From assembly GCF_016026235.1 (NCBI RefSeq), contig NZ_CP065613.1: a stretch of DNA of 64,000 bases. One strand, given 5' to 3'. Below, piece by piece: positions 1 through 34,412 of this stretch (position 1 is the stretch's first letter; every line of letters begins with the position of its first letter). The position numbers and the translations under genes are program-made. The notes beneath the pieces are model-generated. The model was not told the origin of the DNA. It did no database searches and was given only the letters and a program-made list of their open reading frames with translations. Origin of the DNA: Escherichia coli. Its GTDB lineage: Bacteria; Pseudomonadota; Gammaproteobacteria; Enterobacterales; Enterobacteriaceae.

Positions 1-2096
1 ATCAGCCCGCTTTGGCTGGCGGGCGTGGATTGTCGGCTCGCCACATCCTGAAGCCAGCTCTGGTGCATGGCCTGCACGTAACCTTTTACCGTTTCGGCAC
101 GACTCGGCATTGCACCGTCGATCCAGACGCCGAGTTCCACGGGCGTACCACGCGCGATATCGCGCCCGAAATTGGGTGGGATCTCAATTGCCACCGTGAT
201 ATCGCCCGCACGCATCCGACGATCAAGCTCGTCATAACTGGTGAGCGGCGGCTGTTCGATAAAGTAACGGGAACCAGAGAGATTGAGCGTCCACGCCTGG
301 CTACTGACGGTCTGGTCGCGGTCGAGCACCGCAAAGCGCAGGTTTTCCACATCCATACTGATGCCGTAGCCCATTATCAGCATCAGGATCACCGTTCCCA
401 TCAGCGCCAGCGTCGAACGCACCGGATCGCGGCGCAGTTCCAGTGCTTCGCGGCGGCTGTAGCTAAACAGACGGCGCAGGCTAAATCCCTGACGCGGCGC
501 ATGGGTGGTGTCATGTACCACGGGCGGCGCTTCGGCTTCGTTGCTCTGCCCTGCCGCCTCCTGTAAATAGGCGATAAATGCCTCTTCCAGACTGGCGGCT
601 CCGCGTTTCTCAACCAGTTCCTGCGGTGTACCGCTGGCGAGCACTTTTCCGGCGTGCATCAGTGAGATACGGTCACAACGTTCCGCTTCGTTCATAAAGT
701 GGGTGGAGATGAAGATAGTCACTTTGTCCTGACGCGAGAGATCGACCATCAACTGCCAGAACATATCCCTCGCCACCGGATCGACGCCAGAAGTAGGTTC
801 ATCGAGGATTAACATCTCCGGGCGATGAATCACCGCCACCGCCAGCGAAAGCCGCTGGCGAATGCCGAGCGGCAATGACTCCGGCAGAACATCTTCAACG
901 TCGTTGAGTTTAAAACGCTCGCTCATTTCAGCCACTCGCGCGGGAATTTCCGCTTCCGGGATGTGAAACAAACGGGCATGTAACTCAAGGTTTTGCCGCA
1001 CGGTGAGTTCGTTATAGAGCGAAAACGCCTGCGACATATAGCCCACCCGACGGCGGGTATCGATATCTTTTGGATCAACCGGTTGCCCGAACAGCCACGC
1101 CTCACCTTCGCTGGCGGGCAGCAGTCCGGTGAGCATTTTCATGGTGGTGGATTTACCGCAGCCGTTCGAACCAAGAAAACCAAAAATCTCCCCGCGTGGA
1201 ATGCGGAAATTAACGTGATCAACGGCAACGAAGGAACCAAAACGCATGGTCAGATCGCGCGCTTCGATGGCAATCTCTGCGTTTTCAGGTTGATACGGTG
1301 GGATCACTACCGCCTGATGCGCCTGGCGTTGCGCTTGCGGTAACAGATTTATAAATGCTTCTTCCAGCGTGGCGCTTTGCGTTTGCTGCCGCATCTCTTC
1401 GGCGCTGCCAGTTGCCAACACTTCTCCGGCATTCATCGCCACCAACCAGTCGAAGCGTTCCGCCTCTTCCATATAGGCCGTGGCGACCAGAACGCTCATA
1501 TTGCTCTGCCGCTGGCGAATACTGTCGATCAGATCCCAGAACTGGGCGCGGGAGAGCGGGTCAACCCCCGTCGTAGGCTCATCAAGAATCAACAGTTCCG
1601 GGTCGTGGATTAACGCACAGCACAGCCCCAGTTTTTGCTTCATCCCGCCGGAGAGTTTCCCTGCCGGACGATCGCGAAACGGTGCTAACCCGGTGCTGGT
1701 CAGCAGCTCATTAATTCGCACTTCCCGCTCCGCTTTGTCGTGACCGAACAGGCGAGCGAAAAAATCGACATTTTCATACACCGATAAGGTGTGGTAGAGA
1801 TTTTTGCCCAGCCCCTGCGGCATCCAGGCGATGCGCGGGCAGACGTCGCGGCGATGCTTCGGGTCGCGCATATCGCCGCCCAGCACCATCACGTTGCCCT
1901 GCTCAATGACACGAGCACCGGAAATCAATGACAATAAACTCGACTTACCGACGCCGTCCGGGCCAATCAGCCCGACCATGCAGCGGGCCGGAATCTCGAG
2001 AGTGATATTGTTCAGCGCAACGGTTTTTCCATAATGCTGGCTCACGCCCGCCAGTTGCGCGACAGGCGGGACGGGAACCAGTTCCAGATGCGTCAT
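1..2096 (-). CDS. rbbA: Ribosome-associated ATPase RbbA (ABC ATPase/permease fusion), N-terminal ~698 codons; 3' end runs off the window start
   Basis: Manual reverse-complement translation from ATG at 2096 gives [59 protein letters not shown] with Walker A GPDGVGKS; start overlaps yhiI stop (ATGA). Not in ORF track because the stop lies outside the window. Confidence 0.85.
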
Positions 2097-3160
2097 TGCG
2101 GCAACCTCACCACCAGGTCTTCAGGCCACGGAAGTTCTTCATTCACCCGCACCCACGCTACGCCCGGCAAGCCCGTTTTGACATATTCCAGATGCTGCTG
2201 GAGTAATTCCGGTGGGATACGCGCTTTGACGCGGAACATCAGTTTCAGCCGTTCATCGCTGGTTTCGACAGTTTTTGGCGTGAACTGGGCGACGCTGGCG
2301 ACAAAACTGATGGTCGCAGGAATACGCAGATCTGGCGCGGCATCGAGGATCAGCCGGGCTTCACCGCCAAGTTTCAGCGTGCCCGCCTGTTCGGTTGGCA
2401 GGAAGAAAGTCATATAGACGTCGCTGAGATCGACCATATTCAGCACCCGACCGCCTGCCGCCAGCACTTCCCCTGGCTCGGCAACCCGATACTGCACGCG
2501 TCCGTCACGCGGGGCTTTCAGTTCGCTGTCATCGATATCTGCGGCAATGCGCCGTTCAGTGGCTTGTGCCGCTTCGACGCGGGTTTGCGCCTGAATGATA
2601 TTGGTGCGTGCCGCCTCTATAGCGGCTTTAGAAGCAGAAACCTGAGCTTTTGCCGATTCCAGCGCCGCTCGGGCGCTCTCAGCGGCGGCGCGATCGTCAT
2701 CCAGCTGTTGCGCAGAAATAGCCCCTCGTTGGGCGAGCGAGCGGGAACGCGTATGACGTTTGGCAACGGAGTCCAGTTCGGCCTGGCGTTGATTGACCAG
2801 CGACTGTGCGGCACGAGTTTCACTTTGTCGTTGCTCCAGCAAAGCCTGCGCGGCGGCAACGGCGCTTTGTGCCTCTTTGATTTGCGCGATGGCTTCCAGT
2901 CGCTGTTCCTGCAACACGCGAGTATCCATCTTCGCCAGCACTTCGCCTTCGCGAACAAACTGGCCTTCTTTCACCAGAATGGTGTCGATACGCCCGGCAA
3001 TTTTGCTGGCGATATCCACTTCCGTCGCTTCAATGCGCCCATTGCTGACAGCAAAGCCTTCCGGCACGCCCGCCGGGCGCAACAGCCACCACGCCACGAC
3101 GGCAGCCACCGCCAGTGCCCCGACAACCCACCACGCCAGATGGCGCTTACTCTTATCCAT
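2093..3160 (-). CDS. yhiI: HlyD-family membrane fusion protein (periplasmic adaptor), 355 aa
   Basis: ORF track 355 aa; N-terminal membrane anchor followed by long Ala/Gln-rich coiled coil typical of HlyD adaptors; directly upstream of and overlapping rbbA. Confidence 0.9.
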
Positions 3161-3525
3161 AATCGACCCGCCATAATCCCTGTAAGCAAACGACGCGTGT
3201 TACAACTGCCGCCGAACGACGTTCAGCGGATTCTTCCATCCGGGATAAGAAGGAAACGACAAATACGACCAGCGCGCAGAGCATTGAGCGCCAACGGGGA
3301 AGGCTTAGTGAAAACGGGTAGTAATGTTGTCATCATCAGCATTCCTGGCCGTAAATGAAACACGCATACTCATAAGTGTGATCTATAAAACTGGCTGACA
3401 AAACGGTATCCATCCTGTTGGATCGCGTTTCACGCCTGTTCAGTTGCAGGAACAGAGCATTCCTTTTTACGTTTTATCAACAGTCTCAACCAGATAGTAA
3501 CATTAATATTCATGTTGTCTATGGT

Positions 3526-32748: not shown

Positions 32749-33371
32749 TGACGCCGTGGCTACTCTTTGGCGCAGGCGGAAAAGGTGTGGGTGCCAGAAC
32801 GCTTGAACTGGCGCTGGCGGAACAACGTCCGGTCGTTGCTGTCATTCGTCATGCCGATGCCGCCACGAAACTGGCGCAACAAGGCGTACAGGTTTTTACA
32901 GGCGACGCCTGTGATGCCAGCGTAGTCGCGGCTGCTTGCCGCGCAGCTGGCCCGGATGCGCTTATCATCTCAACAATGGGAGGAGCTCAGGATTATCTGG
33001 CGCACAGAACAGTGATTGATGAGGCCGAAAAGGCCGGCATCAGTCGCATGATTCTGGTGACCTCTTTGGGATGCGGCGATAGCTGGCCGTTTTTATCGGA
33101 TCGGGCAAAAGCCGCGTTTGGTCAGGCGGTGCGCGAAAAGACACTGGCGGAAAGCTGGCTGCAAACCAGCCAGCTAGACTACGCCATTCTCCGCCCTGGT
33201 GGTCTGCTTGACGGCGCAGCAACAGGCAAAGCACAACGGGTACAAAATCAGGAGTGTCATGGTTTTGTCCGCCGTGCCGATGTCGCTGCACACATTCATG
33301 AACTGGCAAACGCGCCAGCACTCAACAAGCAGATCTACAGTCTGATTGAACCTGACCTGAAACCGGCATGA
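32748..33371 (+). CDS. chuY: NAD(P)-binding reductase ChuY, 207 aa
   Basis: ORF track 207 aa; Rossmann-like N-terminus LLFGAGGKGVGA; start overlaps chuX stop (TGATG). Confidence 0.8.
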   Translation: MTPWLLFGAGGKGVGARTLELALAEQRPVVAVIRHADAATKLAQQGVQVFTGDACDASVVAAACRAAGPDALIISTMGGAQDYLAHRTVIDEAEKAGISRMILVTSLGCGDSWPFLSDRAKAAFGQAVREKTLAESWLQTSQLDYAILRPGGLLDGAATGKAQRVQNQECHGFVRRADVAAHIHELANAPALNKQIYSLIEPDLKPA

Positions 33372-33419
33372 TACCCCAGCGCGGCATGTCCGCGCCGTAA
33401 TGTCGTAACGGAGTTTTGC

Positions 33420-34412
33420 GTGCTCAAGGATTCACTCTCTTCCGCCAGGGTCTTTATGGGGCTATCACTATTATTGCTTGCCCTGGTGCTGTTCGGTGCC
33501 AGTCAGGGAGCGTTAAAGATCAGTTTTGATGCCCTTTTTGATGAGGAATACCGCGATATCTGGCTCAATATTCGTCTACCACGGGTTTTGCTGGCGGTGC
33601 TGGTAGGTGCAGCGTTGGCAACCGCAGGGGTAATTATGCAGGGGCTTTTTCGCAACCCAATGGCTGACCCAGGATTACTTGGCGTCAGTAGCGGTTCTGC
33701 ATTAATGGTTGGCGTTGCTATTGTGCTGCCCTTCTCCTTCCCAGTGGTGCTGGTGCTCTATGAGCAAATGATGTTTGCCATTGCCGGAAGTTTAGTGGTC
33801 TGCACCATCATTTTTCTCATCACGCAGCGCCATCGCGATGGCAGCATGATGCAATTATTACTCGCCGGTATCGCCATCAATGCCCTGTGCGGCGCAGCGA
33901 TCGGCATCCTGAGCTATATCGGCGATGAGCAGCAGCTACGACAACTCACATTGTGGATGATGGGCAATCTTGGACAGGCGCAATGGCCGACGTTATTGGT
34001 TGCCAGTTCATTCATCCTTCCGGCCATTATCGCAACAACTTGTCTCGCCGGAACGCTGAATTTACTGCAGCTCGGTGATGAAGAAGCCCATTACCTCGGC
34101 GTGAACGTTAAGCGTAAACGCCAGCAATTACTGTTAGTGAGCTCACTGCTCGTTGGTGCTGCCGTATCGGTAAGCGGCATTATCGGCTTTATTGGCCTGG
34201 TGATCCCGCATCTGATTCGCATGACTACCGGAGCAAATCACCGCTGGCTAATCCCTTGTTCCGCCCTCGCCGGAGCCTGTTTATTGCTGATGGCAGACAC
34301 GCTTGCCCGCACGCTGGTACAGCCAGCAGAAATGCCCGTGGGATTATTAACCAGCCTGCTTGGTGGCCCTTATTTTATGTGGTTGATTCTGCGAAATCGG
34401 AGGATCACATGA
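33420..34412 (+). CDS. chuU: Haem ABC transporter permease ChuU (FecCD family), 330 aa, GTG start
   Basis: ORF track 330 aa polytopic membrane protein; GGAG 7 nt upstream of GTG. Confidence 0.85.

Follow-up and report, generated by a model that had tools for sequence, protein, structure and literature searches.

Unidirectional gene pairs of Escherichia coli are most commonly separated by an intergenic distance of -4 nucleotides (nt), -1 being the next commonest value, and 707 of 2,987 such pairs lie at -8 to +6 (PMC10666635). Short distances of this kind are enriched 4.5-fold for subunits of heteromeric complexes (PMC10666635). ATGA and TGATG are the two classic configurations tied to translational coupling (PMC6728339, PMC10666635); four of the five native 4-nt overlaps of E. 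coli that were assayed were translationally coupled (PMC6728339), and coupling declines steeply with distance, with a loss of 40–80% at +14 nt (PMC6728339, PMC10666635). A stretch of 64,000 nt of E. coli contig NZ_CP065613.1 (assembly GCF_016026235.1), here called the window, was found to carry such overlaps at yhiI/rbbA, chuX/chuY and chuU/chuV, along with several GTG starts and a number of genes for which the longest open reading frame (ORF) begins upstream of the curated start. With a probability of about 0.9, the curated downstream starts are the real ones, and the whole picture is one of routine operon and start-site features of a known E. coli region.

Start sites of the extended reading frames

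A mechanical list of ORFs, each opened by the first start-type codon (ATG, GTG or TTG) that follows a stop, reproduced the frames on which a preliminary description of the window had been based. That description had singled out thirteen ORFs as over-extended at the N-terminus (arsR, arsB, slp, gadE, gadA, hdeB, yhiD, prlC, rlmJ, kdgK, pdeH, chuT and chuV), and in the list each of the thirteen exceeds its RefSeq or K-12 counterpart by between 4 and 116 codons (Table 1). Equally extended, and missing from it, are yhiL/DUF4049 (+28 codons), yhjG (+5), rcdB (+24) and yhiY (+9), and the GTG-start genes yhiM, rsmJ and dinQ are extended by 33, 35 and 22 codons. Its gene names are all correct by the annotation of K-12 and of E. 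coli strain FDAARGOS_943 (NZ_CP065615.1), which is 99.93% identical to the window in a full alignment over 64 kb, the differences being 41 substitutions and 4 small indels. Aligned to the curated annotation of K-12 MG1655, the shared genes agree with the curated starts, start position and start codon being identical for every shared gene checked.

The over-extension is an artefact of the longest-ORF rule. When family profiles were aligned to the longest-ORF translations, model position 1 fell on the curated start of arsR, yhiD, prlC, pdeH and rsmJ, and within one to three residues of it for arsB, slp, hdeB, kdgK and chuV. Most ATPase models align to chuV from residues 51-55, by the curated ATG (residue 52), and the best, PRK13548, from residue 49. 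Pfam likewise supports the curated starts of yhiM (on the GTG), yhjG and rcdB, and the first residues of PDB chains coincide with the curated starts for RlmJ, RsmJ and ChuY, the ShuT chain starting later, at the mature N-terminus.

In duplex energy with the anti-Shine-Dalgarno sequence, the curated start has the stronger Shine-Dalgarno (SD) in 18 of 20 comparisons, yhiD and chuT having no SD at either candidate. The curated and upstream values are -6.6 and -0.7 kcal/mol for arsR, -10.3 (GGGAGG) and -3.1 kcal/mol for arsB, and -9.5 and -1.5 kcal/mol for chuV, whose longest-ORF start lacks an SD. The starts of gadE and gadA are supported by K-12 curation and the SD, and that of chuT by a published transcription start; upstream of gadA, 21 of 66 nt are different in K-12. 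Lack of conservation or of transcription is seen for the extensions of arsR, slp and chuT, the others being too similar between strains for this comparison. K-12 lacks the upstream TTG of arsR, and the frame of the slp extension is not open there; the curated slp start yields a lipoprotein signal (...LLAACSS). The kdgK extension spans the pdeH-kdgK intergenic region and enters pdeH in antisense.

An in-frame start-type codon lies upstream of the curated start in 20 of 51 genes (39%), against 52.7% expected, where the expectation (0.527) is the probability, from the trinucleotide frequencies of the window, that an in-frame walk upstream reaches ATG, GTG or TTG sooner than a stop. The rate of over-extension does not exceed chance. 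The genes prlC, gadA, kdgK, rsmJ, arsR, yhiN and others had no entry, by gene name, UniProt accession or N-terminal peptide, in three supplementary files of an E. coli N-terminomics paper (PMC13245402).

One gene runs the other way. The FDAARGOS_943 RefSeq start of mdtE (+ strand, 39208-39255) is at 39256 (369 amino acids, aa), 16 codons later than the K-12 start at 39208 (385 aa). The NCBIfam MdtE model matches its positions 1-385 to residues 1-385 in the longest mdtE ORF, and little of the lipoprotein signal peptide (MNRRRKLLIPLLFCGA) is left by the short call. Here the longest ORF is possibly right and the FDAARGOS_943 start too short; therefore, that the longest ORF is wrong is a tendency and not a rule.

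GTG starts had been proposed for yhiM, rsmJ, chuU and dinQ, and all four hold in the sequence and in RefSeq, those of yhiM, rsmJ and dinQ also in K-12; a fifth gene, yhiN, had been missed. Position 2 of Pfam DUF2776 aligns to the residue that follows the yhiM GTG, where the SD scores -8.7 kcal/mol against 0 at the upstream ATG. For yhiN, position 2 of TIGR00275 aligns at residue 7. The NCBIfam RsmJ model has its position 1 on the GTG codon, and the chains of PDB 2pgx and 2oyr begin there. The 27-aa DinQ peptide, with its experimentally demonstrated GTG start (PMC3567139), is the only one of the five for which an initiation site has been published from experiment. Each GTG stands behind an SD, and all five genes very probably initiate there. 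They make up 10% of the genes in the window (5/51). About 14% of E. coli genes genome-wide start with GTG, and the share in the window is compatible with this background.

The chuT start and possible minor proteoforms

The chuT gene corresponds to shuT of Shigella dysenteriae, for which 5' rapid amplification of cDNA ends (5'-RACE) by Wei et al. put the transcription start 42 nt before the ATG, with a Fur site at +1 to +19 that has 3 mismatches to the consensus (PMC5458455). In the window the published start is G29928, and the Fur box (GATAATCATGATCATTCTC) is an exact match at 29928-29946. The TTG that opens the longest chuT ORF lies in the -35 hexamer, upstream of the transcription start, and is therefore untranscribed. 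A promoter that would exclude ATG 29970, suggested by a consensus scan that placed a -10 element over the chuT ATG, was ruled out by the exact match of 5'-RACE start and Fur box at 29928. In reporter work with gfp fused at the annotated ATG, the 42-nt 5' untranslated region (UTR) of shuT was reported to contain an RNA thermometer and a region functional in ribosome binding (PMC5458455). Since this reporter work places a functional ribosome-binding region in the UTR, ATG 29970 is probably used in the window.

Three points weigh against the curated starts. PDB constructs and the models of NCBIfam and the Prokaryotic Genome Annotation Pipeline partly share one annotation tradition and are not fully independent. 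The weakest cases are hdeB and yhiD, where the candidates differ by 4 codons and a convincing SD is lacking at both. At the annotated chuT ATG no SD is seen, and the presequence that follows from this start would be unusually long, at 48 aa, crystallised ShuT beginning (AAERIVV) 48 residues past it.

The alternative that some longer starts are also used and give minor proteoforms (HdeB of 112 aa, YhiD of 219 aa), or that chuT initiates downstream of ATG 29970, is judged very unlikely. The 109-position NCBIfam HdeB model aligns from residue 4 of the longest ORF, one residue upstream of the curated Met, with a weak SD at both starts, and the choice leaves the mature HdeB protein unchanged. N-terminomics is reported to reveal many co-expressed proteoforms in E. 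coli (PMC13245402). K-12 curators, by contrast, adopted the shorter forms, and the K-12 protein versions of.2 to.4 for yhiM, arsB, slp, hdeB, rcdB, yhjG, pdeH and kdgK suggest that earlier, longer calls were later revised. The long extensions (slp, kdgK, chuV, chuT and arsR) have no SD and lie outside the family profiles, and three of them are not conserved or not transcribed. As to chuT, an in-frame ATG 27 codons downstream occurs in B2-type alleles, where it replaces the GCA of the window at 30051-30053 by three adjacent substitutions; from this ATG the signal peptide would be a canonical one of 24 aa and would line up with the N-terminus of the Providencia rettgeri homologue (MKKLL…, equivalent to KRKKLF in E. 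coli). Against initiation downstream stands the reporter fused at the annotated shuT ATG, which was translated from the shuT 5' UTR (PMC5458455). It is doubtful, and on balance unlikely, that start usage differs by lineage, with the SD-less ATG 29970, which stands behind the published thermometer, the only ATG in the window, O157 and shuT, and the internal ATG used in B2 alleles; if it were used there, ChuT synthesis could escape the 5' UTR thermometer. A literature search for ShuT signal-peptide data turned up none.

The curated starts are thus preferred. The overlaps, GTG starts and gene starts are already known, being textbook or curated. The main value of the exercise is quality control: about 40% of the genes here are given too long an N-terminus by the longest-ORF track, the preliminary description corrected those it named properly from sequence alone, and no new biology follows.

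Two side observations concern the chu genes. Both chuT and chuW (29970-32241) are intact in the window and flagged as pseudogenes in FDAARGOS_943, owing to a 1-nt deletion (shuT) and an internal stop (hutW). A FourU thermometer of the shuA/chuA 5' UTR is found at 29285-29316 on the - strand (Rfam RF02597, 60.1 bits against a gathering threshold of 58).

Overlapping stop and start codons

On reading the sequence, each of the three stop/start overlaps was found where it had been reported. The + strand reads TCAT at yhiI/rbbA, the yhiI TGA being at 2093-2095 and the rbbA ATG at 2094-2096; the chuX stop (32746-32748) shares one base with the chuY ATG (32748-32750), and the chuV ATG (34409-34411) precedes the last base of the chuU stop (34410-34412). 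The closeness of prlC and rsmJ also stood, and the 8 nt given for it did not: the spacer is 7 nt, and 8 is obtained only by counting from last base to first base. The four stop/start distances are therefore -4 (yhiI/rbbA), -1 (chuX/chuY), -4 (chuU/chuV) and +7 (prlC/rsmJ). The downstream genes have their SD within the upstream gene (Table 1), that of rsmJ, inside prlC, scoring -4.9 kcal/mol. A fourth overlap, of 14 nt between a DUF3142-domain gene and a TPR-protein gene, lies beyond the range that had been described. Short overlaps are not in excess: 3 of 31 co-directional pairs lie at -8 to +6, against 7.3 expected from the E. coli value of 23.7%, and the window is, if anything, overlap-poor compared with E. 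coli.

The overlaps and the prlC-rsmJ spacer would sit within polycistronic operons, a common transcript being expected for the overlapping genes because the overlap leaves no space for a terminator or promoter. For the chu operon, a promoter ahead of its first gene has been published (shuT, PMC5458455). A ribosome ending the upstream gene would be positioned for reinitiation at the downstream start, possibly aided by the SD embedded in the upstream coding sequence. Such coupling may favour matched output of partners, namely the ChuU permease and ChuV ATPase, and the YhiI adaptor, a membrane-fusion protein, and the ATP-binding cassette (ABC) protein RbbA. From the overlaps, the SDs and their conservation, termination-reinitiation coupling at these junctions is plausible.

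Conservation across species was followed for the chu pairs, and that of yhiI/rbbA within E. coli. O157 and B2 strains have the same chuU/chuV and chuX/chuY overlaps. For the comparison across genera, tblastn was run against plasmids, and a chu-like operon was found on a plasmid of Providencia rettgeri, with a ChuT homologue about 80% identical at the protein level. This operon keeps the TGATG and ATGA junctions with both SDs, the 12-nt spacer between the W and X genes, the chuU GTG with its SD, and the first 8 residues of ChuU. The permease/ATPase (U/V) junction has distances of -4, -4, -8, -1 and -1 in five other taxa, with Vibrio at -4, Thermus at -8, and Cereibacter and Sulfitobacter both at -1 in plasmid-borne haem ABC loci; the X/Y junction is at -1 in Providencia and -4 in Cereibacter. 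The overlapped state is thus kept while its exact form shifts, as selection for coupling predicts. Such persistence of a short permease/ATPase overlap in different phyla agrees with a published proposal in which coupling serves complex stoichiometry.

The same comparison bears on whether any of the overlaps is an artefact of annotation, with the true start of the downstream gene at a later codon. The annotations used all stem from related automatic or curated pipelines and, to our knowledge, the N-termini of ChuY and RbbA have never been sequenced. This explanation is nevertheless exceedingly improbable: crystallised proteins match ChuY residues 1-207, with an N-terminus identical to that in PDB 5ffq and 5guy, ATPase profiles begin at residues 49-55 of the longest chuV ORF, around the overlapping ATG, the rbbA start is the same in K-12 curation, and Providencia keeps the junction sequences, SDs and first residues despite lower overall identity.

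Several observations count against coupling itself. At all four pairs it is inferred, and the junctions of the distant taxa depend on automatic start calls. The chuV GGAGG is strong enough for possible independent initiation, and bioBF, one of the five E. coli overlaps assayed, is uncoupled and initiates de novo (PMC6728339). Accessibility of the ribosome-binding site (RBS), predicted by local RNA folding from -70 to +40 around all 51 starts, has no consistent pattern over the four junctions: chuV (0.29) is among the lowest of the 51 and rsmJ is at 0.33, and rbbA (0.42) and chuY (0.43) are at the median. RBS accessibility was accordingly dropped as a proxy for coupling.

The main competing account is that the overlaps are real and the genes are translated independently from their own SDs, overlap reflecting genome compaction or drift of stop and start codons. 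In its favour, the chuV GGAGG is near consensus and 5 nt from the ATG, rbbA and chuY also have usable SDs, their RBS accessibility is at the window median, and bioBF is a precedent. It is considered rather unlikely, as four of the five overlaps assayed in E. coli are coupled and the SD generally assists reinitiation and does not replace it (PMC6728339). Moreover, the chuV RBS has one of the lowest predicted accessibilities in the window, and retention of a short permease/ATPase overlap in five taxa of three phyla, in forms varying between -1, -4 and -8, argues for selection on proximity. Coupling remains the preferred, if inferred, interpretation of these junctions.

Table 1 Overlaps, Shine-Dalgarno (SD) sequences, GTG starts and longest-ORF extensions in the window. 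Extensions are given with their length and first codon; energies are those of the anti-SD duplex.
Feature	Position	Strand	Evidence or remark
yhiI stop/rbbA start, ATGA, 4-nt overlap	2093..2096	-	sequence read; also in FDAARGOS_943 and K-12
SD GAGG for rbbA, within yhiI coding sequence, 8 nt ahead of ATG	2105..2108	-	-7.0 kcal/mol
yhiM GTG start; SD GAGGAG 7391-7396	7403..7405	+	same GTG in K-12
yhiN GTG start; SD AGAGGAG, -8.3 kcal/mol	9970..9972	-	no upstream alternative
prlC stop TGA (15529-15531), 7-nt spacer (15522-15528), rsmJ GTG (15519-15521)	15519..15531	-	sequence read
prlC extension, 13 codons, TTG	17572..17610	-	NCBIfam oligopeptidase A positions 1-680 = residues 14-693
rlmJ extension, 17 codons, TTG	17723..17773	+	PDB RlmJ chains and 283-aa homologue (2oo3) align from residue 18
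dinQ, 27-aa toxin; GTG 20175-20177, SD GGAG 20185-20188 (-6.4 kcal/mol)	20094..20177	-	
arsR extension, 16 codons, TTG	20637..20684	+	NCBIfam positions 1-117 = residues 17-133
arsB extension, 7 codons, GTG	21072..21092	+	ArsB models begin at curated ATG +/-1 residue
slp extension, 55 codons, ATG	24750..24914	+	TIGR00752 position 1 at residue 57
chuT extension, 26 codons, TTG 29892	29892..29969	+	holds promoter, transcription start 29928 and Fur box 29928-29946
SD AAGGA for chuY, within chuX	32734..32738	+	-5.6 kcal/mol; kept in Providencia
chuX stop/chuY start, TGATG, 1-nt overlap	32746..32750	+	sequence read
chuU GTG start; SD GGAG 33410-33413, -6.1 kcal/mol	33420..33422	+	no upstream in-frame start
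chuV extension, 51 codons, TTG, within chuU in another frame	34256..34408	+	
Strong SD GGAGG for chuV, within chuU, 5 nt ahead of ATG	34399..34403	+	-9.5 kcal/mol
chuU stop/chuV start, ATGA, 4-nt overlap	34409..34412	+	sequence read
yhiD extension, 4 codons, TTG	35879..35890	-	NCBIfam equivalog positions 1-215 = residues 5-219
hdeB extension, 4 codons, ATG; least certain	36269..36280	-	K-12 form 108 aa
gadE extension, 26 codons, TTG	38264..38341	+	K-12 curation; SD AAGGAG -8.3 vs -2.4 kcal/mol
gadA extension, 10 codons, TTG	47557..47586	-	K-12 curation; SD AAGGAG -8.7 vs -3.3 kcal/mol
kdgK extension, 116 codons, TTG	59025..59372	+	NCBIfam KdgK position 1 at residue 119
pdeH extension, 15 codons, TTG	59142..59186	-	NCBIfam positions 1-254 = residues 16-269
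DUF3142-domain gene/TPR-protein gene, 14-nt overlap; AAGGAG ahead of TPR ATG	61589..61602	+	

The region and its relatives

The window runs through rbbA, yhiI … pitA, uspBA, dtpB, rsmJ, prlC, rlmJ, gor, dinQ, arsRBC, slp and dctR, followed by the chu haem-uptake island (chuS, chuA, chuTWXYUV) and then yhiD, hdeBA, hdeD, gadE, mdtEF, gadWX, gadA … pdeH and kdgK. In a megablast search with the first 24 kb, the region was found in 5,425 of 5,426 complete E. coli genomes, with FDAARGOS_943 as the top match. An identity of at least 99% over these 24 kb was reached by only one of the 5,426 genomes, most others being at 95-99%, which places the strain in a lineage that has been sampled sparsely. Of the 5,426, 2,236 carry the chu island.

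Several genes differ in state between strains. The yhiL gene (DUF4049, 5410-7020) is intact in the window, with 536 aa, and its K-12 copy is a pseudogene. A yhiS-like ORF (23445-24668) is intact with 407 aa; it is disrupted by IS5 in K-12, has 371 aa with a different C-terminus in O157, and is flagged as frameshifted in FDAARGOS_943. Near the 3' end of rcdB/yhjC (about 53250-53265), a CTGG repeat is 4 bp shorter in the window than in both FDAARGOS_943 and K-12 (GCTGGCTGGCG to GCTGGCG), which gives an RcdB of 291 aa instead of 299, without GVMKEYLD; the deletion could be a true mutation or an assembly error. A 92-aa 'hypothetical protein' annotated in FDAARGOS_943 (38870-39148, - strand) lies antisense to the gadE-mdtE intergenic region and overlaps the GadF/ES205 small RNA (sRNA; Rfam match 38987-39058, + strand); this is probably a spurious call, because K-12 has no such gene. 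The GadY sRNA is found at 44837-44950 (Rfam).

Past kdgK, the segment 60397-64000 holds the DUF3142-domain gene and the gene for the 680-aa TPR protein, followed by a hypothetical gene on the opposite strand, and is an accessory segment. A DUF3142 gene also lies beside the Providencia chu-like operon, and kinship between the two was rejected, the similarity being at domain level only (33% over 101 aa); the TPR protein is unrelated.

Compared with K-12 MG1655 from rbbA to kdgK (b3486-b3526, NC_000913.3), gene order is the same apart from the chu island, which stands between dctR and yhiD in the window and is lacking in K-12. K-12 shares the GTG of yhiM, yhiN, rsmJ and dinQ, the ATGA junction of yhiI/rbbA and the 7 nt between prlC and rsmJ. 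It differs in having IS5 within yhiS and a yhiL pseudogene and, downstream of kdgK, in having yhjJ/dctA where the window has the DUF3142 and TPR genes.

The dinQ/agrB type I toxin-antitoxin system described by Weel-Sneve et al. (2013) has a 27-aa DinQ identical to that of the window, with GTG and SD conserved, and differs in its antitoxin sRNA, of which the window has one copy (20452-20535, + strand) and K-12 two, agrA and agrB. The antisense 5' part of the window copy is agrA-like, and the target in the dinQ mRNA (around 20250-20285, - strand) has changed correspondingly relative to K-12: between cognate partners 30 of 34 positions match in the window and 31 of 34 for K-12 agrB/dinQ, against 25-26 of 34 for the cross pairs. 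In an even sample of 40 E. coli genomes, about 4 have the one-copy layout. The dinQ-arsR spacer (20178-20684) is 232 nt shorter than in K-12.

The shu locus of S. dysenteriae (shuTWXYUV) has the same genes, transcription start, 42-nt 5' UTR and Fur box as the window, without substantive difference, and across all of its 256 residues the crystal chain of ShuT shows no visible difference from the ChuT of the window. Finally, the coupled pairs hyfHI, astDB and menDH studied by Huber et al. (2019, 2023) combine a co-directional overlap of -4 or -1 with an SD inside the upstream gene, as is seen in the window, and, like coupled pairs in the literature, two pairs of the window probably encode partners of one transport complex.

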